Positions 14,016 through 64,000 of a DNA stretch of 64,000 nucleotides are shown piece by piece. The position numbers were made by a program, and so were the translations under genes. The notes under the pieces were generated by a model, which saw only the letters and a list, made by a program, of their open reading frames with translations, was not told the DNA's origin and did not search any database. This DNA comes from Christensenella sp. UBA5489 (GTDB taxonomy: Bacteria > Bacillota > Clostridia > Christensenellales > UBA1242), in NCBI GenBank assembly GCA_002424095.1, contig DIPL01000001.1:2184-66183 (forward strand). Direction: 5' to 3'. The stretch's first letter is position 1. Every line of letters begins with the position of its first letter.

Positions 14016-14093
14016 AAATTTAAAAATAGCAACAGAAAAATTTAAAAATTCAAATTCAATGGATTTTTGTTTTTAGCATTAAATGGAGATTTA

Positions 14094-16343
14094 ATGAAAA
14101 AAATTTTAATGTTTTTTATTATGATTTCTCTTATATCAGGCTCGGCAATAGGCATTGCGTTTGGGTTAAATTCTTATAGCTTGAATTTAAAAGTTTATGC
14201 TGCTGAACCTGTTGTTTTAACTAATCAAAATTTTACAACAGAAATTTCTTCACCCGATAACACAGATTTTATTTTATCAGAGGACATAACTCTTGATTAT
14301 TGGACGCCGATTAATTTCAATGGCAACCTTAACGGAAACGGTTTCGCCATAATTGTCGACAAAAATTTATTTAATAATTTAGACGGGGCAAAAATAACGA
14401 ACTTAGGTATTATTTTGAGTGAAGAATATATTTTTGACAACACAGGTTATACGCAGCCAAATTCAGATTTTGGGATTTTGGCAAAGTGTGCCGACTCATC
14501 AGAAATTGAAAATGTGTTTGCCGTTGGGAATTTTCAAGTTAAGGCAAAATCATCATTTCACGTAGGCGGCTTAATTGGCTGGACTAATGGTTCAATAATT
14601 AAAAATTCTTATGTAAAGACGCAGTTTTCGGCAATACAATTTTCCAGCGTAGCAAATTTGAGCATAATTGGTGGTTTTGTCGGCAAACTTTCAAATTCAA
14701 CCGTTCTTAACTCTTTTGCTATTCCATCGACACCGTTGTCATCATCAATGCCTTTACCAAACATTTTAAGCGGAACAGTAGATGACACGCTCATAAATCC
14801 ACAAACAAAATTATATATTGGTGGTTTTGCAGGTCTTGCCGAATGTGGTTCGGCTGGTCTTATTTCGAATATTTTTTGCGGTGGTGCATTTTCTTATTCT
14901 TATGAAGGTTTCCCGCAAGGTGGTGATGATTATATTTTAAAAGGCAAAATTTTTGGAGAAGTCAATGACTTTACTTCTGAATATTTGTCTTTTTGCCATA
15001 CTTTTAATAATCAGTCCGAAATTGAATTTATTGGGAGTACAAACAACGGCTATGTTTATAATAATTTTTCATTTAAAGATAATGCGGTTTTCGGTGAGAT
15101 ATTAAATTTCTCCCCCACCGCCGAAATCGACGATGTGCCACTTTGGAATTTTTTACATAACTGGAACACAACTTCGGTTTGGGCAAAAAAAGAATCAGCG
15201 CAGTTTATAATTTTGCAACCATTTGAACTCTTTTCAGTAACAATAGAAAACAGTTTAAACGACGAAAGTGTCGAATGTAAAATTTTTATTTTCGAAAATG
15301 ATGAATTCATCGAATCTAGTGAAACATCCTTTAAGTTTGGAACTCAACTAAAAATTGAAATAAAAATAATGAACGATTTCTTGCATTATAAACAAATAAA
15401 ATCTTTAACAAAAACAGATTCAACTTTTGATGCCGATTTAGTATGTAATGAAGAACTAACAGAGGCTTCTTTCGTGTTTACACTAGACGCAAGTTTTTCA
15501 GGTTCATACTATGGCACAACGAATAGCATTGACTTTTCTCTAATTGTCAGAACCGAGGACAGCGGAAAAGGGTTTGTCAATTATGGGACATCAAATGAAA
15601 ATCGAACTTTAATCCAATATCCGATTAATTATGGCGGTTTTGGATATGCTTTCAACGCAAAGCCAGTGAGCGATTCATATGCTTTTTCAAAATGGAACTG
15701 GATTGATGAACATGGTGAAAAAACTGTCGCTTTGCGTGGCGCTCCTGAAAATAGTTTGAATGCAAGACAATCGATTTTGATTGCTTTCGGAAAAAGTGGA
15801 AGTGATTCTGAATTAACATATTTGAATTTAGAAGGAAGTCCATCAATTCCACATACTATTGATGAAGAAACGGGCATAATAACCTTTACAATTGAAGCCG
15901 AATTCACCACAAATGTTTGCACTTTAAAAATAGAATCGCCAGTGAATAAAGAAAGTTGCACAATATATGTTGGTGGAATATTAATTGAAAATATAGTTGA
16001 TTTTGCAAATATCTATGAAGCAAGTGTGCAGGTTGGACAGCCAGTTGAAATTAAAATTGAAATGAAAGAAGATTTTATTTTTAAAGGGTGGAAAACTGGT
16101 AGCGGTCGACCGATAGCCGATTATATAAAAAATGATGAAACAGCAATGTCAACGACAATTAATTTAGTTTTGCCAAATGATTTTATTCTTTTCCTAGATT
16201 TTTATGAAGAAGTCGAACAGGAAGCAGATTTACTTTGGCTTTGGATTTCGCTGGGAGTAGTTGGCGGCGGCGGATTAATTGCTTTAACAATTTTCTTGAT
16301 TATTCGTTCAAGGAAAAATAGAGCATTTTTAAGGCACTATTAA
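14094..16343 (+). CDS. large cell-surface protein with GLUG motifs, an N-terminal signal/anchor and a C-terminal TM anchor
   Basis: Signal-like N-terminus MKKILMFFIMISLISGSAIGIAFG. Repeated GLUG-type motifs are VGGLIGWTNGSIIKNSYV, IGGFVGKLSNSTVLNSFA and IGGFAGLAECGSAGLISNIFCGG. The C-terminal TM is LWLWISLGVVGGGGLIALTIFLII followed by RSRKNR. GGAG favours ATG 14094 over the track start 14067. Confidence 0.7.
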   Translation: MKKILMFFIMISLISGSAIGIAFGLNSYSLNLKVYAAEPVVLTNQNFTTEISSPDNTDFILSEDITLDYWTPINFNGNLNGNGFAIIVDKNLFNNLDGAKITNLGIILSEEYIFDNTGYTQPNSDFGILAKCADSSEIENVFAVGNFQVKAKSSFHVGGLIGWTNGSIIKNSYVKTQFSAIQFSSVANLSIIGGFVGKLSNSTVLNSFAIPSTPLSSSMPLPNILSGTVDDTLINPQTKLYIGGFAGLAECGSAGLISNIFCGGAFSYSYEGFPQGGDDYILKGKIFGEVNDFTSEYLSFCHTFNNQSEIEFIGSTNNGYVYNNFSFKDNAVFGEILNFSPTAEIDDVPLWNFLHNWNTTSVWAKKESAQFIILQPFELFSVTIENSLNDESVECKIFIFENDEFIESSETSFKFGTQLKIEIKIMNDFLHYKQIKSLTKTDSTFDADLVCNEELTEASFVFTLDASFSGSYYGTTNSIDFSLIVRTEDSGKGFVNYGTSNENRTLIQYPINYGGFGYAFNAKPVSDSYAFSKWNWIDEHGEKTVALRGAPENSLNARQSILIAFGKSGSDSELTYLNLEGSPSIPHTIDEETGIITFTIEAEFTTNVCTLKIESPVNKESCTIYVGGILIENIVDFANIYEASVQVGQPVEIKIEMKEDFIFKGWKTGSGRPIADYIKNDETAMSTTINLVLPNDFILFLDFYEEVEQEADLLWLWISLGVVGGGGLIALTIFLIIRSRKNRAFLRHY

Positions 16344-16364
16344 TTTAGATATAGAACAATTAAT

Positions 16365-16389
16365 AAGTCGAAAATTTTCGACTTTTTTT
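16365..16389 (+). terminator. rho-independent terminator after the GLUG gene
   Basis: Palindrome AAGTCGAAAATTTTCGACTT followed by a T-run. Confidence 0.6.
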
Positions 16390-16508
16390 ATTTAAAATGA
16401 TTTATAAAAAAATATTCAAAATTATGTCCTATAAATACTCTTTTTAAAAAAATGTGTGTTATTATAATGCAAATTAAGAAAAGGTTCAACGACACATAAG
16501 GAAAAGCA

Positions 16509-16829
16509 ATGGAGAATAATGAAACTCAAATAAAAAATGCACTAATTAAAAAAGCAATTGGCTATAACACAAAAGAAACGGCGGAGGAATATGCGATTTC
16601 TGACGGCGATGAAATATTAAGTAAAAAAAAGATTTCAATTAAACATTTTCCCCCTGATGTGTCAGCAATTAAACTTTTTCTCTTATATTACGGCGAAAAA
16701 TCTGCGGAGATGCTTAACGAATTATCAGATGAAGATTTAGAAACGGAGAAAATCAGATTACTTAAAAGTTTAAAAGATGAACCGACAAAAGAACAAAACG
16801 ACTTATTGAAAGAGTTAAAAAAAACATAG
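16509..16829 (+). CDS. terminase small subunit-like protein (short form)
   Basis: ALIKKAIGYNTKETAEEY...KKKISIKHFPPDVSAIKLFLL matches the pattern L-x-K-R/K-A-L/I-G-Y...PPDV-x-A-x3-WL that I remember from small-terminase proteins of Firmicute phages. It lies directly upstream of portal. The usual N-terminal HTH part is missing. Confidence 0.5.
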   Translation: MENNETQIKNALIKKAIGYNTKETAEEYAISDGDEILSKKKISIKHFPPDVSAIKLFLLYYGEKSAEMLNELSDEDLETEKIRLLKSLKDEPTKEQNDLLKELKKT

Positions 16830-16935
16830 AATTTTAAAACAAACATTATAAAAAAACTAAATGAAATGCTTTTGAATTTATTCAAAAACATTTTTTTAAT
16901 TCCAAAATCAGAAACAAAATTTCAAAGGAGATTAA

Positions 16936-18927
16936 ATGAAAAATAGTGAAAATGAAAAACCAGAAGATTTAAAAAGTACGAATTCAGTAAAAGAAAAATC
17001 AAAAAAATTATACGAAACAAAAACCAAAGAAATGGCCAATTCTCTTGATGCGGCAGAAAAAGCGGAGTTATATGAAAAATTAATTGTTCAAGATGTTACA
17101 GAAGATTTTTTAAATAGACAAGAAGAACGTCGCAGAATAGAGGCACAATGGCAGTTAAATATGAAGTTCTTATCAGGAAATCAATATTGTTCAATCAATA
17201 ATAATGGAGAAATTCTTTCGTATAACCGCAGATTTTTTTGGCAACAGCAAGAATCTTATAATCATATTGCACCAATTATTGAACGTCGGCTTTCCAAACT
17301 TCAAAAAGTACGTCCAAAAATTAATGTTTATCCTGCATCTAACAACGACGCCGACATAAAAACCGCTAAACTTTCAAAGAAAATTCTAGAATCAATTTAT
17401 AACAAAATAGAATTAAGTTCAATCATAACAGAGGCAACAAAATGGAGCGAAATTTGCGGTACAAGTTTTTATAAAATTATTTGGGATTCATCAAAAGGTG
17501 AAAAAATTGCACAACTCGACAACGGAGAAGCAATTAAATCCGGCGACGTTGAAATTTTACCAATATCGCCCTTTGAAATCTATCCCGAAAACTCAATGGC
17601 GCAAGATATACAAAATTGTCGTAGCATAATTCACGCTCGTGCCTACCACGCAGATGAAATCAAAAATCAATGGGGTATTGATATTGAAGGAGATAAAATA
17701 AATATATTAACACTTGAAAATAATGTTGGCGAATTGTCTCAAGTAGGTGCTACAACTCAAAGCAATATGCGAAACAGCGGTGCAAACGGAATTGTTCGTG
17801 AAAATTATGTCGTTGTAATTGAAAAATATGAAGCACCGAGCGAAAAATTCCCTAACGGACGACTTATTATTGTGGCGAAAAATAAATTACTACACATTGG
17901 AGCATTACCTTTTATTAATGATATAGACGGTGCAAGAACTTTTCCGTTTATCAAGCAAGTTTCAATTCCACAAGTCGGATGTTTTTGGGGCAGTAGCATA
18001 ATTGAACGTCTAATTCCACTTCAACGTGCTTATAATGCAATAAAAAACCGCAAACACGAATTCCTCAACCGTCTTTCAATGGGAATTTTGACAGTCGAAG
18101 ACGGCTCAATTGATACCGAAAGTTTGGAAGAAGACGGACTTTGTCCGGGAAAAGTACTTGTTTATCGACAAGGTGCAAATGTACCTAAATATATGTCGAA
18201 CGACACAATTCCGTTTGATTTTACGAGCGAAGAAGAATCTCTCAAAAAAGAATTCGTAGAAATGAGCGGTGTTTCGGATTTTGCAAGCACACAATATACA
18301 AGTAAAAATTTAAGCGGTGCGGCGTTAGAACTCTTAATTGAACAAGATGAAAATAAAATTTTAGTAACGGTGGATAGCATAAAAAGTGCAATCAGAGAAA
18401 TTGCTAAACATATTTTACGACTTTATAAGCAATATGTAAAAATTCCAAAACTAACAAAAATTGTTGGAGATAATGGCGAACTTGAAATTTTTTACTTCAA
18501 CTCAGCAGATATTTCATCCGATGATATTGTTTTCGAAACAAAAGATGAAATAAGCGAAACATATTCTCAAAGGCGGAATATGGTTATGGAACTTTTAAGG
18601 TCAGGATTATTAAGTGATGAAAACGGCAAACTTTCAAACCGTATGAAATCAAAAGTTTTGGAACTTCTTGGCTTTGGAATTTGGGAAGGTGCGCTTGATA
18701 TAAACGAACTTCAAGCAGGTAGAGCATCCAAAGAAAATTATTCATTTCTTGAAAAGCAAGTGCCGAAAACATCTGAAATTGATGACCACGAAATTCATAT
18801 TTCAGAGCATACTGCATTTTTGTTGAGCGGAGAAGTGGAGAAAAACGAAAAATCTAAACAAGAGATAATGAAAAATATTTTAGAACATATCAAACAGCAC
18901 AAAACGCTATTGAATAAATTCAAATAA
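16936..18927 (+). CDS. phage portal protein
   Basis: 663 aa with an AAGGAG RBS. The N-terminal region EERRRIEAQWQLNMKFLSGNQY...YNHIAPIIERRLSKL is typical of portal/head-tail connector proteins. It sits before scaffold and capsid. Confidence 0.8.
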   Translation: MKNSENEKPEDLKSTNSVKEKSKKLYETKTKEMANSLDAAEKAELYEKLIVQDVTEDFLNRQEERRRIEAQWQLNMKFLSGNQYCSINNNGEILSYNRRFFWQQQESYNHIAPIIERRLSKLQKVRPKINVYPASNNDADIKTAKLSKKILESIYNKIELSSIITEATKWSEICGTSFYKIIWDSSKGEKIAQLDNGEAIKSGDVEILPISPFEIYPENSMAQDIQNCRSIIHARAYHADEIKNQWGIDIEGDKINILTLENNVGELSQVGATTQSNMRNSGANGIVRENYVVVIEKYEAPSEKFPNGRLIIVAKNKLLHIGALPFINDIDGARTFPFIKQVSIPQVGCFWGSSIIERLIPLQRAYNAIKNRKHEFLNRLSMGILTVEDGSIDTESLEEDGLCPGKVLVYRQGANVPKYMSNDTIPFDFTSEEESLKKEFVEMSGVSDFASTQYTSKNLSGAALELLIEQDENKILVTVDSIKSAIREIAKHILRLYKQYVKIPKLTKIVGDNGELEIFYFNSADISSDDIVFETKDEISETYSQRRNMVMELLRSGLLSDENGKLSNRMKSKVLELLGFGIWEGALDINELQAGRASKENYSFLEKQVPKTSEIDDHEIHISEHTAFLLSGEVEKNEKSKQEIMKNILEHIKQHKTLLNKFK

Positions 18928-18942
18928 TAAAATGGAGAAAAA

Positions 18943-20049
18943 ATGCAAAAAGAAAATAAGAAAAGGGAACAACCTGTAAAAAAATCCAACAAACCAGCAG
19001 TCAACTCCTTTGATAAATTAACTCGTGAATTAGCTCAAAAAATGAAACTGGAAAATATTAGTGCAAAATCGAACGAAAATAACAAAAAACTTAAAACTGA
19101 ACCAACTTTTGATTTTGGCGAAAACACAGTTAATGAAATCTTTGGCAAAGTTAATGAAGAAATCATTGATAAAATTTCAGAAAAAACAAATGATGACAAC
19201 GAAAATGCTGAAAAATCAATTATAACTTCTGAAAAATCTGCTGATGGAGAAACTGCTAAAACTGTTGAAGAAATGACAAATCAAACTGCTGACGAACAAA
19301 CAGAATCTAGTGGCAATTTTGACAACAGCAAAACGAATTGCAATTCTAATTGTTGCGAAAAAGATTGTAATGAAAATTTGGAAACAACTGAAAACTTCAC
19401 AGGCTCCCTTGGTAAATTCAAAGATGCTCAAAGTTTACTCATCGCCTATAACAACTTGCAGGCAGAGTTTACAAGAAAGTGTCAAAGACTAAAAGAATTT
19501 GAAAGAACATATGAACCAGAAAGTTGGCGAACGACAATAAAAAGTAATGAAAACTTGAACGACAAAAAACTTGATAATAAAATCGCATTGGAAAAATTAT
19601 TTTCACAAATTTCAACAACCGAAAATGAGCAAATAAATCCGCAAGAAATCAATGTTCAAAATCTAGCGGAAAAGCAATTGCAATCAGATTTTCAAACAAA
19701 ACAATTACAACCGGAAAACAAATCGCAGTTGCAAACAGAGAATTTTCAAGAAGAGATAAAATCACAGGCAAATCAATTGTCGGAAAATCAAACGAAAGAA
19801 CAAACGGAATCACAAAATACTAATATTGAAGATTTATTGAAAAATCCACAAGTTAAAGAATATATTTTAAACCGTGATGATATAAAAGAAAATGTTTTGA
19901 AAATATATTTTAAAGAACTTCGTGAAAGCAATCCACCGAAGGTGATTTCAAGTCTTATTGGCTCTGGAATTGCACTGAAAACTCCACTGAAACCAACAAA
20001 TATGGAAGAGGCAAAAGCAATCATAAATAAGATGTTTCATTTAAAATAA
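18943..20049 (+). CDS. putative capsid scaffolding protein
   Basis: Assigned by position between portal and capsid. It is a 368-aa, highly acidic, Gln/Glu/Asn-rich low-complexity protein. An odd Cys cluster CNSNCCEKDC lies near aa 133. Confidence 0.45.
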   Translation: MQKENKKREQPVKKSNKPAVNSFDKLTRELAQKMKLENISAKSNENNKKLKTEPTFDFGENTVNEIFGKVNEEIIDKISEKTNDDNENAEKSIITSEKSADGETAKTVEEMTNQTADEQTESSGNFDNSKTNCNSNCCEKDCNENLETTENFTGSLGKFKDAQSLLIAYNNLQAEFTRKCQRLKEFERTYEPESWRTTIKSNENLNDKKLDNKIALEKLFSQISTTENEQINPQEINVQNLAEKQLQSDFQTKQLQPENKSQLQTENFQEEIKSQANQLSENQTKEQTESQNTNIEDLLKNPQVKEYILNRDDIKENVLKIYFKELRESNPPKVISSLIGSGIALKTPLKPTNMEEAKAIINKMFHLK

Positions 20050-20091
20050 AAAATATCAAAATTAAAAAATTAATCAATTTTAGGAGGGAAA

Positions 20092-21309
20092 ATGGCAGTA
20101 ACAATAACAAGCGCAGAAGCAGCGCTAAAAAGTGTATATCTTGGAGTTGTTGCAAATCAACTCAACATAAACTCAAATCCTTTACTTGCAAAAATTCGTC
20201 AATCATCGGCAAATATTTGGGGCAAGGAAATCATCAAACTTGCACCTTATGGCATTAATGGCGGCATAGGTGCAGGTAGCGAGGAAGGCAGTCTTCCGAC
20301 AGCAGGTGGAAATAAATATGTGCAGTTTAAAGCTGGATTAAAAAATTTATATGGGAAAATTGAAATTTCAGATAAAGCAATTCGTGCATCAGAAAATAAT
20401 GTTGGTGCATTCGTAAATCTTCTAAACGATGAAATGGAAGGGCTTATCAAAGCAAGCAGTTTTAATCTCGGACGTATGCTCTACGGCGATGGCTCGGGGC
20501 TTTTGGCAACCACTTCAAAAGCGGTTTCCTTAGGAGATACTTTTTTCACAGTTGCAGACGCACGGAACATAATTGAAGGAATGATTTTGGACGTGTATAA
20601 CGGTGATACAAAAAATGCGACATTCAGTGGCTATCGTGTTACCTATGTCGAAAGAGGAGCAAATGAAAGCAAAATTTATATTGATTGTCCGTCAGACCTT
20701 GGAACTTTAACCACCGCTGCAAAACTTTATGTGCAAGGCTCACGCAATTTTGAAATAACAGGCTTAGAAGCAATTTTTGGTAGTGCTGATTTATATGGGT
20801 TAAGTCGTACAACATATCCGTGGCTTAATCCGTATAAAGATAACACAGATAAAGAAATTTCCGACATTGTTCTTCAAGATGCAATTGATGCCTTGGAAGA
20901 TAAGGCGGGTAGTGAAATTGACTTTATAACGTGTGCAAGGGATGTTCGCAAGGCATATCAGCAATATCTATCATATTACAAAAGAAATGTCGATATTATG
21001 GAACTTGCGGGCGGTTATAAAGCGATAACCTTTAATGGTATACCGCTTGTCGCCGACCGATTTGTTGAAAGTGGAACATTATATATGTTAAATACAAAAG
21101 ATTTTGTATTGCATCAACTTTGCGACTGGAATTGGCTTGAAAACGAAGATGGCAGAGTTTTAAGACAAACCACTGGTTATCCGACATATAGTGCAACTTT
21201 GGTAAAATATGCAGATTTAATTTGCGACCGTCCAATTGCTCAGTCAAAAATTTCAGGAATTTCAAGCACGGTTACAAATCCGTTTGAAATTCCAACTGGA
21301 ACAGAATAA
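20092..21309 (+). CDS. phage major capsid protein (HK97-fold inferred)
   Basis: 405 aa with a strong AGGAGGG RBS, located after the scaffold gene. SDKAIRASENNVGAFVNLLNDEMEGLIKASSFNLGRMLYGDGSG is typical of major capsid families. Confidence 0.75.
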   Translation: MAVTITSAEAALKSVYLGVVANQLNINSNPLLAKIRQSSANIWGKEIIKLAPYGINGGIGAGSEEGSLPTAGGNKYVQFKAGLKNLYGKIEISDKAIRASENNVGAFVNLLNDEMEGLIKASSFNLGRMLYGDGSGLLATTSKAVSLGDTFFTVADARNIIEGMILDVYNGDTKNATFSGYRVTYVERGANESKIYIDCPSDLGTLTTAAKLYVQGSRNFEITGLEAIFGSADLYGLSRTTYPWLNPYKDNTDKEISDIVLQDAIDALEDKAGSEIDFITCARDVRKAYQQYLSYYKRNVDIMELAGGYKAITFNGIPLVADRFVESGTLYMLNTKDFVLHQLCDWNWLENEDGRVLRQTTGYPTYSATLVKYADLICDRPIAQSKISGISSTVTNPFEIPTGTE

Positions 21310-21345
21310 ATTATAAAATGAAACAACTTATGAAGAGAGTTAAAT

Positions 21346-21654
21346 ATGTTGGTTGAAGTTACAACAGATGTATATTTTATTGCCGAACGCTTATGTGAAA
21401 TTGATAAAAATTATTTTACAGTCTATAACACCGCCACTCAAAAATTTGAAATTCACAATAGAGAGCAACAAGGGAATACTTATTGTTTAAGTGTTCCCTT
21501 TGAAACTCTTGATTGTCGCACTTTGGAACTGGTGCAGAAAACGAAAATAGAAAATATCAATAAAATAATTGAAGAGATTGACAAGTCTAATATAATAGCA
21601 CAACAAAAATTGCAGAGAGAAACATTAAAAAAAGCACAGAAAATTTTAAATTAA
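21346..21654 (+). CDS. hypothetical phage protein
   Basis: 102-aa ORF in the structural operon. No family recognised. Confidence 0.4.
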   Translation: MLVEVTTDVYFIAERLCEIDKNYFTVYNTATQKFEIHNREQQGNTYCLSVPFETLDCRTLELVQKTKIENINKIIEEIDKSNIIAQQKLQRETLKKAQKILN

Positions 21655-21717
21655 ATTGTAAGAATATAAGATTGAACTCAAAAAAATAAAAATTCGAAAG
21701 TTAAAAAAGGATATAAA

Positions 21718-22290
21718 ATGAAAGTCAAAGATATAATTGAAATTGCACTTGTACTTGTTGGGAAGAATTCTCTTTTGGACACATCAATGTTTAATCCACA
21801 AATTATAGAACCGCTGACCAATGAGCAAGAAAAAGAACTAGGCTATTTAGAAAAGTGTTTTAATTTAGTTTATAAGGAAGTGAGTGCAGATTATTTACCG
21901 CTTATGTATGAAGAAACAATTACATTTAAAAACGGCGAGTTTGTTTTGGACCAACTTGATAAAAGCATTCTAGACATTTATAAACTTTATGATAATTCGT
22001 ATGGAGATATTTCTTACCGCCTTTTTCCAACTTATATAAAAGCCGATGCCACAGTCGCTAATATAATTTACAGTTTTTTGCCTGAAAATCTAGAACTTGA
22101 TGATGAAGTAATATTTTTTGGCGGAAAACTTTTGCCACAAGTTTTAGCATACGGAATTGCACGTGAATATTGTCTTATTAATGGCGAACTTACAGAAGCA
22201 GATATTTGGGAAAAACGTTTTAAAGATGGAATTCAAACTGAAATGCGAAAAAAAAGTCAAATACAAATCAAGCCACGGAGGTGGTATTAA
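21718..22290 (+). CDS. putative head-tail connector/adaptor protein
   Basis: 190-aa protein positioned after the capsid gene. The call rests on position and general similarity to gp6-like head completion proteins only. Confidence 0.35.
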   Translation: MKVKDIIEIALVLVGKNSLLDTSMFNPQIIEPLTNEQEKELGYLEKCFNLVYKEVSADYLPLMYEETITFKNGEFVLDQLDKSILDIYKLYDNSYGDISYRLFPTYIKADATVANIIYSFLPENLELDDEVIFFGGKLLPQVLAYGIAREYCLINGELTEADIWEKRFKDGIQTEMRKKSQIQIKPRRWY

Positions 22291-23780
22291 TGTCGTTGAT
22301 GTTTTATAAAAACAAATTAAAAATAAAAAAGCCAAATTCAAAAATAATTAATTTTGACAATTTTGCGGAGAATATAAATTCAGATTTATGTAGCGAAAAT
22401 CTCAAAGAAGCAGGAAAAATAAGTTATAACTATCAAAATACAAGCGGAACGCTTGAATCCGAAATAGGATTCACTGAACTTGCTTTGCCAATTTCGGATG
22501 GTTCGCTTGAAACACGTATAATTCGAAATTTCAATGATACCGACGTAAAAAAACTTTGGCATTTTAAATATTTTGACCACGTTTATAACTGTGTTGCTGA
22601 TAAAATTATTTTTTGCAGTGCGGATGGGAGATTAAGTGTTTTAAGCGTTTTTGACTATGATAAAAATTCTTACATACTCGATATTGAAGCATTCGGAAAC
22701 TTGCCAGTTGGCATAAATTATTGCATTGAAGGCGAGGACTTTATGATCTTTTCAGGCGGCAGTTCTCTTGTGGCTTACACTTCACGCCGATTGCCAATTT
22801 ATAACGAAAATTGTCCGCCGCTTTTATCAATTTGCAAGGCATACGATAACATTTTTGCAATTTTAGCAGGCGATAGAAATAAACTTTTATATACGCCAAA
22901 TACGAATCCACTTGCATTGAGCGATATAAATGAAAAAATGGATTTAACTGGCGAAGCAGGGCGGCTTTGTTCACTTATTAATTTTGATGATTATTTATTT
23001 ATTTTTCGAGAATTTGGAATTACAAAACTTTCAAAGTACGGCTCAGCAGATAATTTCAGTATAAGCGAAATATATCAGTCATCCGCTAGAATTTATGAAA
23101 ATACGATTTCTGTTTGCGGAAATGAAATTATATTTTTAGCACAAGATGGAATTTATAAATTTAGCGGAACGAACACCGAAAAAATTAAATTAAATATTGA
23201 TAAATTTTTCGACGGTATTGCAAACAATGATTCATCCGCTTGTTATAGTAAAGGAAAATATATTTTGGCGTGTAGGCTGAATTTTGGCGATGAAAGAGAA
23301 GTTGGTTGTGAAACATATGCAGATGGATTTAAAAATAATGCGATTATAATTTTAGATTTAAACTCAAAAAAATTCAGCATTATGCGTGGACTTGATATTT
23401 CAAGTTTGCTTAGTTTAAATGCTGGTTCGTTAAGCACCATCTTAGCAACTTTTAATGGCGAACATTCTAAAAAAATTGGAATTATAGACACTTCTGCATC
23501 AATTTTTGACACAGAATTAAACTGTTTGTGGCAAAGCGGAAAATTTGATTTTGGAGAATTTGAAAAACTTAAAATTATAAAAAAGATTTTTATAAAGACA
23601 AAAGAGAATTGCAAAATAATCTTGAAATCAGATATTGAAGAAAAAATTTTTACAATCAATGCTGGACCATCAACGCAGTGCATTAACACAAAATTAAAAG
23701 GAAAAGTTTTCGAAGTTAGCATATCATCAGACGGAAAAACGCATATATCAAACTTCAAACTTAAAGCCGATATTGAATAA
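22290..23780 (+). CDS. putative neck/tail structural protein (repetitive beta-rich)
   Basis: TAATG overlap with the upstream gene. GGAGG at 22277-22281 favours ATG 22290. Recurrent FxxDGxxY-type segments (FCSADGRLSVLSVFDY, FLAQDGIYKFSG) suggest a beta-propeller-like fold. Confidence 0.35.
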   Translation: MSLMFYKNKLKIKKPNSKIINFDNFAENINSDLCSENLKEAGKISYNYQNTSGTLESEIGFTELALPISDGSLETRIIRNFNDTDVKKLWHFKYFDHVYNCVADKIIFCSADGRLSVLSVFDYDKNSYILDIEAFGNLPVGINYCIEGEDFMIFSGGSSLVAYTSRRLPIYNENCPPLLSICKAYDNIFAILAGDRNKLLYTPNTNPLALSDINEKMDLTGEAGRLCSLINFDDYLFIFREFGITKLSKYGSADNFSISEIYQSSARIYENTISVCGNEIIFLAQDGIYKFSGTNTEKIKLNIDKFFDGIANNDSSACYSKGKYILACRLNFGDEREVGCETYADGFKNNAIIILDLNSKKFSIMRGLDISSLLSLNAGSLSTILATFNGEHSKKIGIIDTSASIFDTELNCLWQSGKFDFGEFEKLKIIKKIFIKTKENCKIILKSDIEEKIFTINAGPSTQCINTKLKGKVFEVSISSDGKTHISNFKLKADIE

Positions 23781-23793
23781 AGGCAGGATAGCA

Positions 23794-23997
23794 ATGAAAA
23801 GTAGTTTAAAGCAAAATAAGATGAACGAACATAATTCGTCAAATAAATTAATTGAAAACTCTCAGGAAAAACAGAATAAAAGAGAAAATCAAAAACAACA
23901 AAATAGTTTTAAATTTTCGCATAAAGTAATAAGAGGAAAAATACTCTATTTATTAAGACGAGATTATATCAAAAGATATAAAAAATTGAATATTTAG
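23794..23997 (+). CDS. small, very basic Lys/Gln/Asn-rich ORF (uncertain)
   Basis: 67 aa from ATG 23794, with a low-complexity composition. It may not be a real gene. Confidence 0.2.
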   Translation: MKSSLKQNKMNEHNSSNKLIENSQEKQNKRENQKQQNSFKFSHKVIRGKILYLLRRDYIKRYKKLNI

Positions 23998-24082
23998 AAA
24001 AATATTTTAGATATATAAGATATAAACATATAAAAATATTATATTATAAAGAACTTTTTTAATATAAAATTTATAAAATATA

Positions 24083-24484
24083 ATGAAACACAAAAGGTTG
24101 AAAATGCAAGAATTAATTAATGTAGTAATAAGTAACGGAATTTTTGCAACTTTATTTGTTGCGTTGCTTTATTTTCAATTAAAAGACAGTTCTCAACGTG
24201 AGAAAAAATATATTGCAGTGATTGAAAAATTTTCAAAGCAACTCGATGCCGTTGAAGATGTTAAGGAAAATATTTCCAAACACTTTGATTCTGTCGATAA
24301 CGTGAGTTATGACATTTCTAAACAATCTGAGGCAATTGAAAATGTTAAGCAAGACATATCTGAAATAAAAAATGTAATTTATTTTAATAACACAATTGTT
24401 TCAAAGGGGAAAAAAGATAACAAAAAGCAAAGTAACATTATTAAAGAAAATAATTCCGAAGCAAAAGTCGAAAATGAAAATTAA
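24083..24484 (+). CDS. BhlA/UviB-family holin-like protein
   Basis: N-terminal single TM and adjacent motif VISNGIFATLFVALLYFQLKDSSQREKKYIAVIEKFSKQL matches my recollection of the BhlA/UviB family (GPFAVLFCWLLFYVMKTSKERESKL). The true start may be ATG 24104. Confidence 0.6.
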   Translation: MKHKRLKMQELINVVISNGIFATLFVALLYFQLKDSSQREKKYIAVIEKFSKQLDAVEDVKENISKHFDSVDNVSYDISKQSEAIENVKQDISEIKNVIYFNNTIVSKGKKDNKKQSNIIKENNSEAKVENEN

Positions 24485-24507
24485 TTTTCAGAAGTAAAAA
24501 GGAAAAG

Positions 24508-24810
24508 ATGAAATTTAAAGATAGAGTAAAATCATATAAATTTTGGGTTGCGCTTTCCGCCTCGCTCATAATTTTATTACAAACTTTGGGAGAGGCATTT
24601 GGCTTCACGATATCTGAAAAGGTGATTGATGGAATTGTTATGGGATTTTGCAGTATTCTTGTGGTTCTAGGAATTGTCGAGCATCCAGCCGACAAGAATA
24701 ATGACGACAAAGAAAATATTGAAAACGACAAAAAATCTGAAAATGAAAGTAAACCCGAAACCAAATCCGAAAATAAACCCGAACCCAAATCCGAAAGCAA
24801 ACCAAAATAG
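24508..24810 (+). CDS. phiLC3-family phage holin
   Basis: MKFKDRVKSYKFWVALSASLIILLQTLGEAFGFTISEKVIDGIVMGFCSILVVLGIVEHP has two TM helices and the typical N-terminal KNKxFW motif pattern. The tail is a charged repeat. Confidence 0.65.
   Translation: MKFKDRVKSYKFWVALSASLIILLQTLGEAFGFTISEKVIDGIVMGFCSILVVLGIVEHPADKNNDDKENIENDKKSENESKPETKSENKPEPKSESKPK
24751..24807 (+). repeat. 24-bp tandem repeat (about 2.3 copies) encoding KPE(T/P)KSE(N/S)
   Basis: AAACCCGAAACCAAATCCGAAAAT (24751-24774) and AAACCCGAACCCAAATCCGAAAGC (24775-24798) are 22/24 identical. A partial third copy follows. Confidence 0.8.
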
Positions 24811-24828
24811 AAAAATAAAAAAATATTT

Positions 24829-24878
24829 AAACTCATTAATTTTAGGAGAAATTCTTAAATTTAATGAGTTTTTATTTT
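24829..24878 (+). terminator. rho-independent terminator closing the island
   Basis: AAACTCATTAA (24829-24839) pairs with TTAATGAGTTT (24861-24871) and is followed by a T-run. Confidence 0.55.
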
Positions 24879-24948
24879 TAAACTTTACAATCTTAAAAAA
24901 AATGTTATAATTACAATTAATACAGTAAATTTTTTTAGAAGGATTATA

Positions 24949-58714: not shown

Positions 58715-59060
58715 AATTTTTCCTTTATTTTAGAAAATTGTATTAATGTTAATTGTTAATATTTTATTAAATCTTGGATTTATTAACTATAATTTTAATA
58801 TCATATAAAAAAATATTAAATAATTTTAAAATTAGATAAATATTTTAAATAATTTGTGATATAATAAATTAACAGGACTTATATCAATCTGCAAGTTATA
58901 AGTACAGTTTCTAGTATATTAAGTTTTGAAGTGATTTGTCAAACTTTTTATCAAAAAACTTTAAAAAATCAAAAATTTATAAAAAATAAGCCCTAAAACA
59001 GTTGCATTAATAAAAAATTGTTATTATAATAATAATGATTTTTAAAAAAGGAGAGAGAAA

Positions 59061-59573
59061 ATGAAATTTTTTAAATCTATTGCATGTTGTGCGGTTGCAC
59101 TTTGTATGAGTTTTATTATGGTTGGTTGTGCGTGTGGCGCTCAGAACATAACATTAGGAACTTATAACGAAGAGACAAATACATTTAGCGCACTTGGTGC
59201 AAATCCTGGCTATTCTTTAACTATTGCTGATAAAGACTTAACCTTAAATGGTGAAATTCCGTATGACGAAGATGGTTTTACAGACCCAGCAGTTGCAGCG
59301 GGAAATATCGTAGTTATTCAGTTTAAATCACCAACAGTGTTAGGGGAAGAGGATGTTCCTGTTATTGAAACAAAAGCACAGGGCGAAACAGAATTTACAG
59401 CACAAGCCAATATCGAAGAAGATAAAACTTTTGTTTGGATTGTAAAGATTGATGCTAAGACTGATGTAAACCAAATTAAGATTACATGGACTGAAGAATC
59501 TGATGCAATTACTTATACTTTAAAAGTTGCGTCAACAGCGACATTAGAAGAAGCACCTGCACCAGAAGTTTAA
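59061..59573 (+). CDS. lipoprotein, function unknown
   Basis: Signal peptide with a lipobox-like FIMVGC|A. 170 aa. Confidence 0.6.
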   Translation: MKFFKSIACCAVALCMSFIMVGCACGAQNITLGTYNEETNTFSALGANPGYSLTIADKDLTLNGEIPYDEDGFTDPAVAAGNIVVIQFKSPTVLGEEDVPVIETKAQGETEFTAQANIEEDKTFVWIVKIDAKTDVNQIKITWTEESDAITYTLKVASTATLEEAPAPEV

Positions 59574-59648
59574 AAATGAGATAAATTAAATTAATAATTA
59601 GATTTGATAAAATATTTCTTATCAAATTAATAAGAATTTAAACTCTAT

Positions 59649-59679
59649 AAAAAATTCCGATTTGAAATCGGAATTTTTT
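59649..59679. terminator. bidirectional rho-independent terminator
   Basis: AAAAAATTCCGATTT-G-AAATCGGAATTTTTT is a perfect palindrome lying between the convergent genes. Confidence 0.6.
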
Positions 59680-59863
59680 ATTTCATTTATTGTTTATTTT
59701 TTATGATTTTATGAATAATTGGTTTCATATTTACTTTTTCAAAAAAATCAGATGCTTTAAAATAACAAAAAACGCAAGTTTTGACCACTCGACTTTTAAA
59801 AAGTGCCAATTGAAAATTTTTAAGATTTATTTTAATTTTGTTTTTTTTATTATTAAAAATGAT

Positions 59864-60706
59864 TTAGTTGTCTAAAAATAGAATTCCGATTGTTTTTTCG
59901 CCACAATGCGAAGAAATTGTTATTCCTGCACGCACAGTATAAATTGTTTTGAAACCTTTATTTTCTAGCGCCGTTTTTATCGTATTAATCATTTCATCAG
60001 TTGCTGTAGTATGCGTTATAAAAGCAGTACTCAAATCAGGGTCAGGATAAGCGTCCATAACATTTTTAGTAAATTTTTCCACAGCTTTGTTCATATTTCT
60101 TTCTTTAAATTTTGCACTGGAAAGCATTTTCCCATCTTTAACGGTAATTTGTGGTTTGATTCCAAAAATGCTTGCCGCCATAAGTTGAGCCAAATTGCAT
60201 CGTCCGCCCTTATGCAAAAATGTTAATTTTTCAATTATAAAATTAACCCTCACTTTTTCACGAAGTTTCAAACATTCTTCATAAACAGTTTTTGCGTCTT
60301 TTCCCTCTTTAATTAAATCTATTGCACGAAGTGCGAGCAAGGCAATGCCTGTTGATAGTGATAAAGAATCTACTACATATACATTTTTCATTTTTTCTGC
60401 TGCTTTTTTAGCATTATCGTAGGCAAGACTAGCACTACTGGATAGTGAAAAGTGAATTACCGCATCGTTGTCTTTTAATAATTTTTCGAAATGTTCTTGG
60501 AATTCCATTTCATTTACTGCGCTGGTTTTAGGCAGAGTTTTTGTTCTTTTAACGAACTCGAACATTTCATCAATAGTAATATCTCCATCTTTAATTAAAT
60601 CGTCTCCTAAAAAAATACCGAATGGAACAGTTGAAATTTCAAATTTTTTCAACATATCCTTTGGTAGGTCGATTGTGCTTTCCGCAGAAATAGCAATTTT
60701 TTTCAT
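59864..60706 (-). CDS. DegV-family fatty-acid-binding protein
   Basis: MKKIAISAESTIDLPKDMLKKFEISTVPFGI...HCGEKTIGILF. An internal GGAGG favours ATG 60706 over the track start 60718. Confidence 0.8.
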   Translation of the reverse strand: MKKIAISAESTIDLPKDMLKKFEISTVPFGIFLGDDLIKDGDITIDEMFEFVKRTKTLPKTSAVNEMEFQEHFEKLLKDNDAVIHFSLSSSASLAYDNAKKAAEKMKNVYVVDSLSLSTGIALLALRAIDLIKEGKDAKTVYEECLKLREKVRVNFIIEKLTFLHKGGRCNLAQLMAASIFGIKPQITVKDGKMLSSAKFKERNMNKAVEKFTKNVMDAYPDPDLSTAFITHTTATDEMINTIKTALENKGFKTIYTVRAGITISSHCGEKTIGILFLDN

Positions 60707-61108
60707 AAATACCTCCATTAATTTATATATTCTATCAAATTATTTGATTTGATAGTATAATTTACTTAAAATTTTATATTCTTTTTTTAATTATTTGAAT
60801 TTAAACTTTCACGTACAAACATTAATCATTTACATTATATACATTAAATTTAAAAAATCAAACATATAAACATAACAAGCATTTTTGGCTTTAATTAATT
60901 TTTTATTAATTTTGTCTAAAATTGTTGTAAATTGTAAAAATAAAACACAAAATTGCTTGTAAAAATTTCTTTTTATGATATTATTATACAATAATAATAT
61001 TTAATTGATCGTTTTAAATAGGTTTTAAACAAAATTGAGTTATAAGGAATGTATTGATACGTGGATGTGAAAGAGAAATTAGAGAAGAATATTAAATTTA
61101 ATGCCTGA

Positions 61109-63459
61109 AAAGACAATAGAGGGAATTATCAATCACTAAAAAGTCATTTAGATAATATTTCTGAAATGGCGAGTGGCTTTGCGCCAATCGCCCCAAATTT
61201 AGCAAGCCTTATAGGTGTTTTACATGATGTAGGAAAAGCATCTTGCCAGTTTCAAACTTACTTAGAAGAAAGTGAAAAGTCTAAAATAAATAACAAAAGA
61301 GGCAAAATCAAGCATTCTATTCAAGGCGCTTTTTTAACTGACGATATTTTCAATTCTCAGCAACAAATAGCACAACTTATAAAAGAAATAATTGAAATTG
61401 TGATTTCAGGGCATCACGGAAATTTAAATGATATTGTCAGTCCCGACGGCGAAAAAGTTTTCTTTGATAAATTAAACTTGTCTAAAAATCCAGAATATGA
61501 TTATAAAAACATACGAAATAATTCAGAATTAATTTTAAATAAAACAGAAATTCACAAGTTTTTTGAAGCAGCCCAAAATGAAATTTCTGTGATTTTGGAT
61601 TTCATAGAAAGTAATTATGAATCTGAACAATCTGCGTCATTTGCACTTGGACTTTTAGTTAAATACATTTACTCTTGCTTGATTGATGCCGATAGGCTGG
61701 ACGCATATTTGTTTGATATTGGAGAAGACATAAATTCCAATCAAAAAGATTTTGATTGGAGTCATTTAATTGATACATTTGAAACAAATATTAAAGAATT
61801 TAAAAATGATAATAAAATTTCAAAAATTCGCTCTTTAATTTCTGAAAAATGTAAAAATGCTGCAAAAAGAGAAACAGGGATATATCAATTATCTGTTCCG
61901 ACAGGTGGCGGAAAAACTTTATCTTCGTTACGCTTTGCCTTGCACCATGCAAAAAATAAAAAGAAAAATCGAATTATCTATGTAATTCCTTATCTTTCAA
62001 TCATTGAACAAACAGCAGAAAGCATTCGTAAAATACTTAATTTAAAACAAAACAAAGATATTATCCTAGAACATCATTCTAATATTGTAACTCCGCTTGA
62101 TGATGAAGAAAGAGGTCTTAGGAAACTAGCCGCTTCTCGTTGGGATAATCCAATTATAATCACAACAATGGTTCAATTTTTAGAAACAGTTATGTCTGCA
62201 AAAGGGAGTAATCTCAGAAAATTTCACAATATGCAAAATAGCGTTATTATCTTTGATGAAATTCAATCATTGCCTGTCAATACAATTCATTTGTTCAATG
62301 AAGTCGCAACTTTTTTATCTAAAATATTAAATTCCACAATTTTGCTTTGTACCGCAACGCAACCTCGCATTGCTGCTACTAAACGACATAATCTGCTATT
62401 ATCAAAAAATCCTAATTTAATTGAAGACTTCGAAAAAGATTTTCAAGATTTAAAGAGAACTAAAATTGTTCCTAAAAAAGAAATGAATATTGATGAATTT
62501 TCTCAATTTATATGGGAAAAATCTCAAAAAAATAATAATTGTTTAACAATCGTAAATAAAAAAAGCCAAGCAAGGCAAGTATATGAAATATTAAAAGAAA
62601 AGAACAAAAATAATAGTTTTAAATTGTTGCATTTAAGTACTTCAATGTGTCCAGCGCATAGAATTGAGACACTTGAAAATATAAAGACTTTATTAAAAGA
62701 AGGAGAGAAAGTTATTTGTGTAAGCACGCAACTTATTGAAGCAGGTGTAGATATATCTTTTGACTGTGTTGTTAGGGCAATGGCAGGTTTAATATTGTGC
62801 AGGCGGCGGGAAGATGCAATAGAAACGGCGGAGATGAAGCAAAGGAGAAAGATGTTTATGTGATTCCGTTAAAAGCAGAAAATTTGGAAAGATTATATGA
62901 CATAAAAAATAAAAAGGAAAAAACTGCGAAAATAATAAACGAAAATAAAGGAGCGGATTTTTTAAGTCAAGAAATATTAAATGAATTTTATAAGCATTAT
63001 TATGATGATAGAGGAGAGTTGATGGATTTTCCAATAAGTAAAACTGGAAATACAACAATTTATTCACTGCTTTCAGAAAATGAAGTTGGTAGACGAAACT
63101 ATAAAAACAGAAAGAATGTTGATTTCTCGCATCTCATCGCTCAGGCATTTACTTCGGCGGGCGAAAATTTTAAGGTTATAGATAATAACACAACCGCAGT
63201 TGTTGTTTATTTTGGTAATGTCGAAACATTGCTTCTTGATTATAAAAAAGCAGATTTGAAAAATAAAATTTCAATTTTGCAAGAGTTGCAGAAATATAGT
63301 GTTTCTTTATTTTCATATGAATATGAAAAGCTTTTAGAGCAAGGTGCTATAACCGAATTAGATGAAGAATTCGGTATTAAATTGCTTGCTTCGTTCTATT
63401 ATTCTAATGAATATGGCGTTACAACCGAAGTCGATGTTGAAAAATATATTCCAGATTAA
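61109..63459 (+). pseudogene. cas3: cas3 (HD nuclease + SF2 helicase; type I-C-like context) with a disrupted 5' end and an internal frameshift
   Basis: HD motifs are QSLKSHL (upstream of the first ATG) and LHDVGKAS. Helicase motifs are VPTGGGKTLSSL, IIFDEIQSLP, CTATQP and QAAGRCNR. The last motif is in a different frame: ORFs 61166-62863 and 62797-63459 overlap, and the junction GGTTTAATATTGTG at 62786-62799 reads AMAGL|NIVQAAGRCNR if one base is restored. Confidence 0.7.
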
Positions 63460-63475
63460 TTAAAAAGGAGAAATA

Positions 63476-64000
63476 ATGAAAAATATTGAGAAAAAACGAA
63501 ATTCAGTAGAGTTCGAAGTGTATGGTAAATATGCTTTATTTTCAGACCCTATTACAAGAGTAGGCGGAGAAAAATTTACATATCAAGTTCCAACATATCA
63601 AGCATTGAAAGGTATGCTGGAAAGTGTTTTTTGGAAACCAACATTTGTTTGGGTTATTGATGCGGTGCGAGTAATGAATAAAATCCAAACCGAAGGAAAA
63701 GGCATTCGTCCAATTAATTTTGGTGGCATATATCCAAGCAAGTTGGCAGTTGGTCAAAAACCAAGCACTGACAAATTTTTCAATAGCCTTGCTTATTACA
63801 CTTATTTAAAGAAAGTGCGTTATCAGGTTTTAGCACACTTTGAATGAAAATCGTGCAGACTTAAAACAAGACCGCAATGAAAATAAACACTTTGATATGG
63901 CAACACGAGCGATAAAAAAGGGTGGCAGACGAGATATTTTTTTAGGAACAAGAGAATGTCAGGCTTATGTTGTTCCTTGTAAGTTTGGTGAAGGTGAAGG
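63476..64000 (+). pseudogene. cas5: cas5 (Cas5d/type I-C-like), frameshifted at ~63845 and running off the window
   Basis: [47 protein letters not shown] closely resembles Cas5d as I remember it. The frame ends at TGA 63845-63847 (..LAHFE*). The +1 frame continues [53 protein letters not shown] without stops to the window end. Confidence 0.7.

Follow-up and report, generated by a model that had tools for sequence, protein, structure and literature searches.

A type I-C cas operon with shared and strain-specific lesions in an uncultured low-GC Clostridia bacterium

Background

In type I-C CRISPR-Cas systems, Cas5c is the crRNA-processing nuclease as well as a subunit of Cascade, and it replaces Cas6. 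An intact operon of this kind (type I-C, Dvulg/Csd) was available from a Logan assembly (SRR29050546, hereafter L010); it is a sister of the operon described here, has the order cas3-cas5c-cas8c-cas7 without a cas6, and is accompanied by cas4-cas1-cas2 and a repeat. Decayed cas operons are a well-known phenomenon, with cas3 pseudogene loci having been described since at least 2010 in degraded cas loci of Escherichia, Salmonella, and Shigella (Touchon and Rocha 2010, PMC2886076). In addition, self-targeting spacers and temperate phages have been linked to the degradation or deletion of type I systems (PMC7708048, citing Stern 2010 and Rollie 2020).

The window analysed here, i.e., the whole stretch of 64,000 nucleotides, stems from a low-GC bacterium that is uncultured and carries the NCBI label “Clostridia bacterium”, and ends in a cas operon of the same gene order as L010, of which it reaches only the first two genes. 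No cas6 was called in this operon. Based on comparison with other strains and with intact homologs, it is very probably a dead type I-C interference operon, in which lesions shared by the strains were followed by strain-specific hits.

Results

Identity of the cas3 pieces

Profile searches of the cas3 pieces (NCBIfam/Pfam) returned Cas3 HD and helicase models (TIGR01596, 1.3e-26, and TIGR01587, 2e-35, both beyond their cut-offs), with further domain matches to PF18019, PF00270, and PF22590. The pieces are thus predicted to derive from a Cas3 with fused HD nuclease and superfamily-2 helicase whose open reading frame is interrupted twice (Table 1). Once restored, this Cas3 is ~71% and ~70% identical to its nearest full-length matches in a protein search (P0001 and P0002, respectively, the latter being the Cas3 of a Clostridia MAG, GCA_028684835.1). 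In the window itself, no single uninterrupted ORF joins a cas3 start codon to HD motif I, helicase motif VI, and the C-terminal domain.

Table 1 Coordinates (window positions) of the cas3 and cas5c pieces and of the three lesions
Feature	Position	Strand	Details
cas3 5' fragment	61061..61108	+	Start at GTG 61061 or GTG 61067; encodes (V)DVKEKLEKNIKFNA; ends at premature stop
Lesion 1, TGA in place of conserved Arg codon	61106..61108	+	Codon alignment to intact homologs
cas3 main body, original frame	61109..62791	+	HD motifs I-V, helicase motifs up to ...VVRAMAGL
Lesion 2, net loss of 4 nt	62789..62794	+	GGT TTA GAC TCT ATT GTG to GGT TTA ATA TTG TG
cas3 3' part, shifted frame	62791..63459	+	NIVQAAGRCNR... 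through C-terminal domain; TAA 63457-59
cas5c 5' part, 123 codons	63476..63847	+	TIGR01876, 7.1e-32, profile positions 1-94
Lesion 3, 5-nt deletion in cas5c	63840..63847	+	Homologs GAG TGG AAT GAA AAT; window GAA TGA AAA T
cas5c continuation, +1 frame	63840..64000	+	LNENRADL...; TIGR01876, 1.5e-14, profile positions 96-145; passes window end

Lesions in cas3

The putative start of cas3 at GTG 61061 (or 61067) lies 10 nt downstream of AAGGAA, and the short 5' fragment aligns in frame to the N-termini of the intact homologs P0001/P0002 (MKITKDKKNICFNARKD...). Lesion 1 falls 15 codons into the gene. According to three-frame translation, the frame remains unchanged beyond it (KDNRGNYQSLKSHLDNISE, followed by the first ATG at 61166), and the conserved F-N/K-A-R-K-D stays in frame upstream of the stop. 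Since this motif runs in frame and the TGA occupies the position of a conserved Arg codon (read as CGC in L010 and as CGA in L009, the nearest intact homologs), lesion 1 is a nonsense mutation, as the initial annotation had proposed as its first option; CGA to TGA would be a one-step route. The other option considered there, a start at ATG 61101 with the A4 run once having been A5, was rejected, as the in-frame FNA-R-KD motif spans the stop. The ATG at 61166 is located 3' of HD motif I (KSHL), and any Cas3 product begun there lacks this motif. The stop was found in every contig spanning the site (L003, L004, L005, L006, L007, and L008).

Lesion 2 changes the cas3 frame between ...RAMAGL (end 62791) and NIVQAAGRCNR (frame of 62791), so that helicase motif VI and the C-terminal domain no longer follow in frame; the 3' part nevertheless matches residues 567-789 of the L010 Cas3 at 68% identity (tblastn). 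A same-species contig and the outgroups read GLDSIVQ at this position, and no single contiguous deletion accounts for the loss. Of the earlier description of this site, the frame change was upheld, whereas its repair by restoring one base is ruled out, four bases being missing in comparison to the sister strain. The intact allele (GLDSIV) was found in L002 (GCA_028704815.1, protein P0127) and in the outgroups L009/L010, and the broken allele in the window, L001, L003, L005-L008, and P0123. The frameshifted Cas3 tail recurs in the NCBI MAG proteins P0003, P0123, and P0124.

Both cas3 lesions are genuine mutations, and as lesion 1 is present in every contig spanning its site and lesion 2 is missing in one MAG, they represent separate events, which bears out the two independent lesions originally noted. 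Positions 59000-64000 of the window were 100% identical to L005 (ENA ERZ27283064), L006 (JGI 3300038318), L007 (ENA ERZ724039), and L008 (Logan SRR27370453). L003, L008, and L002/L004 are distinct strains with SNP blocks of up to ~5% elsewhere and lesions 1 and 3 in common. Since L005, L006, and L007 are one strain and the NCBI MAGs may share one project, the number of independent lineages is about 4-5, not 9.

Search for an intact cas3 allele

A sister genome with an uninterrupted cas3, which would have spoken against inactivation, was found neither among the contigs nor among the database proteins of this species. In a search of 5.8 billion proteins, there was no full-length Cas3 above 71% identity, and a comparison of the restored Cas3 to the GTDB representative genomes retrieved only an unrelated Cytobacillus Cas3 (37% identity) and no intact allele. 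Exact-pattern scans of the metagenome_contigs collection, performed for the lesion 1 site (variable base set to N) and for the stretch immediately preceding lesion 2, yielded 0 matches each; this collection apparently lacks the organism of the window. A search with the N-terminal 247 aa of the restored Cas3 returned two distant matches only; as the known positives P0001-P0003 were not among them, its negative result carries no weight. That no intact allele exists is thus a statement about the contigs compared here and the 5.8-billion-protein search.

cas5c and the downstream genes

The Cas5c family model TIGR01876 covers both halves of a frameshifted cas5c. Its 5' part is 84% identical to residues 1-120 of the L010 Cas5, and the continuation, followed in L005, is 79% identical to residues 122-257. 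Lesion 3 turns HFEWNENR into HFE followed by a stop and removes a conserved Trp-Asn; it is consistent with a GAATG-GAATG direct repeat having collapsed. It was present in 7/7 same-species contigs spanning the site. The initial annotation did not list this lesion.

Beyond the window end, cas8c (PF09709) and cas7 (PF05107) were located in L005 at 13088-15100 and 15100-15929, with identities to L010 of ~59% for Cas8c and ~78% for Cas7 (tblastn). In the strain of the window, cas7 is frameshifted by the loss of 1 nt within an A5-G3-A5 stretch (split into 172 + 106 aa in L005/L006), and it is intact in L003/L008. cas8c is a full-length ORF in most strains, so that expression of part of the operon is conceivable in principle; in L002, it is split into 207 + 280 aa by an internal deletion of ~450 nt.

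The presence of a CRISPR array downstream of the cas genes, as assumed earlier, was not borne out: no array and no cas4, cas1, or cas2 follow cas7, but rather a repeat-free spacer of ~700 nt and then the housekeeping genes for a polyprenyl synthase, hisZ, and hisS. No repeat family was detected 3' of cas7, the window and L005 gave no Rfam CRISPR-DR match, and neither a match to the L010 repeat within 8 substitutions nor CRISPR-like k-mer spacing was observed. With the Cas4, Cas1, and Cas2 of L010 as tblastn queries, no match at E<=1e-3 was obtained in L001-L008 (covering ~6 kb downstream and 64 kb upstream), and the adaptation module is missing in 4/4 same-species contigs extending beyond cas7. 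These negative results for array and cas genes cover ~74 kb of the genome, and an array or a second cas locus might be located elsewhere.

A 3' fragment of tRNA-Leu(CAA), 59 nt long, was identified ~400 nt downstream of cas7. Together with a full tRNA-Leu, it brackets hisS, hisZ, and the polyprenyl synthase, with the cas genes lying outside. An att site flanking the cas operon was therefore rejected, as the bracketed genes are not cas genes and even the terminator hairpin is included in the similarity. The fragment is better explained by a deletion scar or by a second, truncated copy of the tRNA.

Genomic surroundings

Three disrupting lesions are located within the last 3 kb of the window. 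The ORF map of the other 61 kb (homology-checked for ~10 kb upstream and the first ~20 kb) shows no gap >450 nt and no obviously split gene. The intact neighbourhood that the initial annotation had described for cas3 fails for cas5c within the window and for cas7 just beyond it. As these two genes are also broken, decay extends beyond cas3 to the operon, which is located between degV and the polyprenyl synthase gene. In at least 7 contigs, among them that of the strain with the intact lesion 2 allele, a phage-derived island (terminase 8234-9712, portal 16936-18927) is found at one and the same chromosomal site; it is separated from the cas locus by ~36 kb with housekeeping genes in between.

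Age and course of the decay

The restored Cas3 deviates in 1 of the 164 columns that are >=95% conserved (median of intact homologs: 2), and its identity to 113 outgroups (51.5%) is similar to that of intact sisters (51.7% and 51.1%). The restored protein being no further from the outgroups than intact sisters and having kept its conserved columns, the inactivation appears recent, as already suspected from the motifs: the amino-acid sequence shows no excess change. Within the species, cas3 contains 4 synonymous and 4 non-synonymous SNPs, too few to demonstrate relaxed selection. Strain-variable lesions comprise the 4-nt loss in cas3, the 1-nt loss in cas7, and the internal deletion of ~450 nt in cas8c. 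The cas3-cas8c stretch is nearly invariant between strains with flanks differing by 1-5%.

Discussion

Following the distribution of the lesions across strains, function would first have been lost via the shared lesions, i.e., the cas3 nonsense mutation, the cas5c deletion, and, in the four contigs reaching that far, the missing adaptation module and array. The operon would subsequently have drifted without selection, with each lineage gaining further hits of its own.

This reading has to be weighed against the gene being intact in the organism or being fully expressed despite its lesions. Sequencing or assembly artefacts such as homopolymer miscalls, named earlier as the trivial alternative, could be suspected in an AT-rich genome, and the cas7 lesion outside the window indeed falls into an A5-G3-A5 stretch. 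However, none of the three window lesions is a homopolymer slip (a base substitution, a net loss of four, and a loss of five at a 5-nt direct repeat), and all recur base for base in independent assemblies from different groups and assemblers (megahit k119, SPAdes NODE, JGI, Logan, NCBI MAGs). Because identical lesions occur in other data sets and in NCBI MAGs of strains that differ elsewhere, and because one MAG is intact at lesion 2 only, as expected for a real polymorphism, the chance of an artefact is practically nil. Scarcely more credible is recoding, i.e., full expression through read-through or reassignment of the TGA at 61106 combined with programmed frameshifts at 62791 and 63845. In its favour, some low-GC lineages have reassigned TGA, and the +1 shift beside a TGA in cas5c superficially recalls prfB. 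Nevertheless, TGA terminates 12 of the 72 window ORFs, ribosomal-protein genes among them, by which a reading of the cas3 TGA under code 4/25 was ruled out. Moreover, at all three sites the intact homologs and one sister strain simply continue in frame, from which it follows that the lesions are derived states rather than conserved signals. Inspection of lesion 2 revealed no X XXY YYZ heptamer, and at lesion 3 a GAA-to-AAU slip would occur without re-pairing, while any shift there would delete the conserved Trp. Finally, the lesions vary among strains, and cas8c and cas7 are damaged too.

The remaining alternatives accept that the operon is dead and differ in its history. Positive selection against self-targeting of the phage-derived island or another prophage, with array and adaptation genes deleted alongside, draws on an island that is real and site-conserved in at least 7 contigs, on the link between self-targeting or temperate phages and degraded type I systems drawn in PMC7708048, and on the tRNA-Leu(CAA) fragment ~400 nt after cas7, which may mark a deletion scar. 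On the other hand, there is no surviving spacer to show self-targeting, nothing ties the island, with housekeeping genes and ~36 kb in between, to the cas locus, and neutral decay after loss of the array needs fewer assumptions for the same data; such a knockout is considered unlikely, and a link between island and cas decay is, as no spacers were found, speculation. Equally unlikely is that only a cas3-cas7 fragment was acquired horizontally, without cas4, cas1, cas2, and array, and never functioned in this species. The closest intact operons (L009 and L010) do lie in a different genomic context, 4/4 contigs reaching past cas7 are without the adaptation module, and the tRNA fragment adjoins the operon end; against this, no integrase or mobile-element gene was seen beside the operon, the two tRNA copies bracket hisS, hisZ, and the polyprenyl synthase instead of the cas genes, and the GC content of the operon matches that of its surroundings. 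That Cas3 is as conserved as working homologs is compatible with a history of decay as well as with arrival in a dead state. Even less probable is a stepwise selected inactivation that ended autoimmunity against the island 36 kb upstream, with the array and cas4-cas1-cas2 being deleted in the same episode and the tRNA-Leu fragment left as the scar. In a variant thereof, the intact cas8c and a truncated, helicase-only Cas3 would have been kept for a non-defence role, and a recent sweep of the dead allele would then account for the low cas3-cas8c diversity.

With decay through shared and then strain-specific lesions as the preferred reading, the locus is of modest importance as a clear-cut natural case of a CRISPR-Cas system decaying step by step, and it opens no new question. 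Since the founding shared lesions can be separated from later strain-specific ones across metagenomes, it could serve studies of the rate of defence loss. For annotation, the cas3 and cas5c pieces should be labelled as pseudogenes, and the species should not be counted as an active type I-C carrier.

In comparison to the intact L010 operon, the first and the C-terminal cas3 segments show ~72% and 68% identity, respectively, and Cas5c shows 79-84%. The family models TIGR01587, TIGR01596, TIGR01876, PF09709, and PF05107 are common to type I-C and the operon described here; unlike in L010, cas3, cas5c, and cas7 carry lesions, and cas4, cas1, cas2, and a repeat array are absent beside the operon. 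With the cases treated in PMC7708048, the locus shares an inactivated type I system and a phage-derived element in one genome, and it differs from them in having no self-targeting spacer, nor any spacer, at the locus. The enterobacterial loci (PMC2886076) are of type I-E/I-F, often carry IS insertions, and usually retain a residual array, whereas the present operon is of type I-C, is disrupted by point mutations and small indels, and has neither an IS element nor a nearby array. Like the loci of Salmonella, Shigella, and E. coli, it consists of cas pseudogenes with frameshifts or truncations whose extent of decay varies between strains, in line with ongoing loss (PMC2886076).

Three reading-frame lesions in cas3 and cas5c

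The region 60700-64000, which holds cas3 and the part of cas5c inside the window, was read and translated in the three forward frames, reproducing the initial annotation's account of the cas3 sequence. Past the TGA that closes the 5' fragment (lesion 1), the same frame continues as KDNRGNYQSLKSHLDNISE, with its first ATG at 61166. The original frame reaches ...VVRAMAGL at ~62791 and then runs through unrelated residues up to TGA 62861-63 (lesion 2). The pieces were assigned to Cas3 by NCBIfam and Pfam models (TIGR01596, HD domain, 1.3e-26; TIGR01587, helicase core, 2e-35; also PF18019 and PF22590). Translation starting at ATG 61166 would yield a protein without HD motif I (whose His is the one in KSHL) and without either helicase motif VI or the C-terminal domain.

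Features of the cas operon and their coordinates (window positions unless a contig is named)
Feature	Position	Strand	Details
Upstream stop before cas3 5' ORF	61055-57	+	three-frame translation
cas3 5' ORF start	GTG 61061 (or GTG 61067)	+	10 nt 3' of AAGGAA
cas3 5' fragment	ends TGA 61106-08	+	encodes (V)DVKEKLEKNIKFNA; translation
cas3 3' part (motif VI NIVQAAGRCNR onward)	~62791 to stop 63457-59	+	different frame
cas5c 5' part	63476 to premature TGA 63845-47	+	stop after ...YQVLAHFE; translation
cas5c continuation	from 63840	+	+1 frame; translation
cas8c replacement in GCA_028704815.1	L002 ~3320-3419 = L005 13709-14256		

The nearest full-length relatives of Cas3 with both lesions restored were P0001 (~71% identity) and P0002 (~70%), 790 aa, from uncultured Clostridia; no full-length Cas3 more than 71% identical was found among 5.8 billion clustered proteins searched. 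When the query was cut to the N-terminal 247 aa of the restored protein, only two distant matches came back, and P0001, P0002, and the frameshifted MAG protein P0003, which are 70-100% identical there, were missed; negatives from short queries of this kind carry little weight.

Lesion types were read from codon alignments against homologs, with the intact outgroup operons L010 and L009 taken as the DNA of P0001 and P0002, respectively. Lesion 1 is a nonsense mutation, as initially thought possible, because its TGA lies exactly at the conserved Arg codon of FNA-R-KD (CGC in L010, CGA in L009; CGA to TGA needs one C-to-T change) and conserved Cas3 residues flank the stop in frame on both sides. 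The same in-frame conservation rules out the alternative start at ATG 61101 with an extra A. At lesion 2, intact sequences all encode G-L-D-S-I-V-Q (GGT TTA GAY TCT ATT GTR) and the window reads GGT TTA ATA TTG TG, 4 bases shorter, so that the repair by one restored base proposed in the initial annotation did not hold. A single contiguous 4-nt deletion is insufficient; either deletions of 1 + 3 nt are needed or one of 4 nt together with a substitution. The damage is not limited to cas3, since the frame of cas5c is broken as well (lesion 3): TIGR01876, the model for type I-C Cas5c, matches both pieces (profile positions 1-94 and 96-145), and where homologs have GAG TGG AAT GAA AAT (E-W-N-E-N) the window has GAA TGA AAA T, 5 bases shorter, the outcome expected if a GAATG-GAATG direct repeat had collapsed.

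Recurrence of the lesions in related contigs

The window cas3 and cas5 ORF products were looked up as exact sequences in public sources, and matching contigs were fetched. Window 59000-64000, lesions included, was 100% identical to contigs from ENA (L005, ERZ27283064, 91 kb; L007, ERZ724039, 68 kb), JGI (L006, 3300038318, 368 kb), and Logan (L008, SRR27370453); there were 2 SNPs against L003 (GCA_028692295.1) and 0 in the overlap with L001 (GCA_028698855.1), and the frameshifted Cas3 tail (...AMAGLILCRRREDAIETAEMKQRRKMFM) recurs in P0123, a further MAG protein. L003, L008, and L002/L004 represent distinct strains, with SNP blocks of 1-5% against L005 elsewhere in the 20-kb neighbourhood. The lesion 1 TGA was present in all six fetched contigs covering the site (L003-L008) and the 5-nt deletion of lesion 3 in 7/7; an intact lesion 2 site was found only in GCA_028704815.1 (L002, Cas3 P0127; GGT TTA GAC TCT ATT GVG, translated AMAGLDSIVQAAGRCNR). 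Among the related contigs, no sister genome had a cas3 uninterrupted at both positions. Because identical lesions recur across contigs of several sources and in differing strains, sequencing error is excluded for the cas3 and cas5c lesions, including the homopolymer-type error raised initially, as none of the three window lesions changes a homopolymer length. Recoding would leave the genes readable despite the stops and shifts; TGA, however, is a normal stop codon here, since it ends 12 of the 72 largest non-overlapping window ORFs, ribosomal-protein cluster genes among them, and programmed recoding is very unlikely because the sites are derived, strain-variable, unconserved in homologs, and without slippery motifs.

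Adaptation genes and CRISPR array

In L005 and L006, cas3 is followed by cas5c (123 + 137 aa), an intact cas8c (670 aa), cas7 (172 + 106 aa), ~700 nt of non-coding sequence, and then polyprenyl synthase, hisZ-like, and hisS genes on the opposite strand. In contrast, the intact L010 operon goes on to cas4, cas1, and cas2, with a repeat typical of type I-C, GTCGCTCCCCACACGCGGGAGCGTGGATT. With the L010 proteins as tblastn queries, Cas4, Cas1, and Cas2 had no match in any same-species contig. The CRISPR array initially assumed downstream is not present there: no repeat family was found in the spacer 3' of cas7, Rfam gave no CRISPR-DR match to either the window or L005, and a fuzzy search for the I-C repeat and a k-mer spacing test gave no CRISPR signal. 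Cas5c in type I-C systems is the pre-crRNA endonuclease as well as a Cascade subunit. Judging from family knowledge, both interference and adaptation would be impossible, because Cas5c, cas1/cas2/cas4, and the array are all lacking.

Beyond the window, ~400 nt 3' of cas7, part of tRNA-Leu(CAA) occurs a second time (L005 16329-16387, - strand): 59 nt of its 3' half, from anticodon loop through CCA, are repeated there with 3 mismatches, and the likeness extends into the terminator hairpin; the full copy is at L005 20570-20655 (-), and ARAGORN found no complete tRNA at the 59-nt copy. The fragment may be what is left of a second tRNA gene, cut short where cas4-cas1-cas2 and the array were deleted, or it may be the scar of an old integration.

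Strain-specific decay

Common to the strains are the nonsense codon in cas3, the 5-nt deletion in cas5c, and the lack of both adaptation genes and an array, whereas the 4-nt loss in cas3, the 1-nt loss in cas7, and the cas8c deletion are private. The cas7 of the window's strain (L005, L006, L007) has lost 1 nt within GAAAAAGGGAAAAATCC, and L003 and L008 carry an intact haplotype, ~5% divergent. L002 has kept the ancestral lesion 2 site, yet ~548 nt of its cas8c are replaced by ~100 nt, leaving 207 + 280 aa. Such a mixture would be expected of an already-dead system whose lineages then gathered their own hits.

The two cas7 haplotypes, ~5% apart, also differ by several in-frame indels (L005 15100-15929, beyond the window, against L003, L008, and L002). 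Among strains whose adjoining cas7 diverges, cas3-cas5-cas8c is nearly invariant (0-0.25%). In the flanking housekeeping genes for sigma factor, amidase, and glyS, divergence is 1-4% for L004 and much lower for L003. Such a patchwork suggests that blocks have recombined or that the dead cas3-cas8c allele swept recently. The two cas3-bearing contigs of GCA_028704815.1 share an overlap of 127 nt within the gene, an indication that the sample held more than one strain. In other strains or assemblies, gene calls were split for hisS (52 + 352 aa, L008 12051-13285, Logan SRR27370453) and rpmG (L33; 56 + 26 aa, L012 2977-3374, GCA_028681115.1); either frameshifts at the strain level or misassembly may account for these splits in housekeeping genes.

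Age of inactivation

For a test of recency, Cas3 with its two lesions restored was aligned to 115 full-length homologs. It departed from consensus at 1 of the 164 columns conserved at ≥95% (intact homologs: median 2, range 0-8), and it was on average 51.5% identical to 113 Cas3 proteins of the outgroup (intact sisters: P0001 51.7%, P0002 51.1%). Because both values are comparable to those of intact homologs, Cas3 shows no detectable acceleration, and the recent inactivation initially proposed is upheld. Within the species, cas3 SNPs were 4 synonymous and 4 non-synonymous, a count too small to be read either way.

Surroundings and comparison with known systems

Neighbouring genes had been described as intact. 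The ORF map of the other 61 kb of the window agrees with this, with dense long ORFs and no gap >450 nt; within it, the genes from rpsK to degV, in the 10 kb before cas3, were of normal length and domain content in four contigs. The description fails for the adjoining, frameshifted cas5c. The phage-derived origin assigned to the island at 6353-24948 was confirmed by two of its genes, for a large terminase of T4 type (8234-9712) and a portal like that of P22 (16936-18927); Pfam left the majority of the island's large ORFs unmatched. The insertion site lies in a region rich in ribosomal-protein genes, with an ogg-like gene on one side and other housekeeping genes on the other. Since the island occupies the same site after the ogg-like gene in at least seven contigs from several MAGs, including the MAG with the intact lesion 2 site, it predates the strain split, as do the shared cas lesions. 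Island and cas decay are tied only by co-occurrence. Self-targeting and temperate phages have been described as drivers of type I system loss (PMC7708048); that inactivation was selected here as an escape from autoimmunity towards the phage-like island that this genome carries, or that cas8c keeps a residual role, we consider highly improbable.

The cas decay is real and spans the whole operon, and the phenomenon itself is ordinary, being known since 2010 from Salmonella, Shigella, and E. coli, whose degraded CRISPR/cas loci hold cas3 pseudogenes, frameshifts, and truncations that vary from strain to strain (PMC2886076). The present locus resembles these, but is a type I-C system in an uncultured Clostridia lineage.
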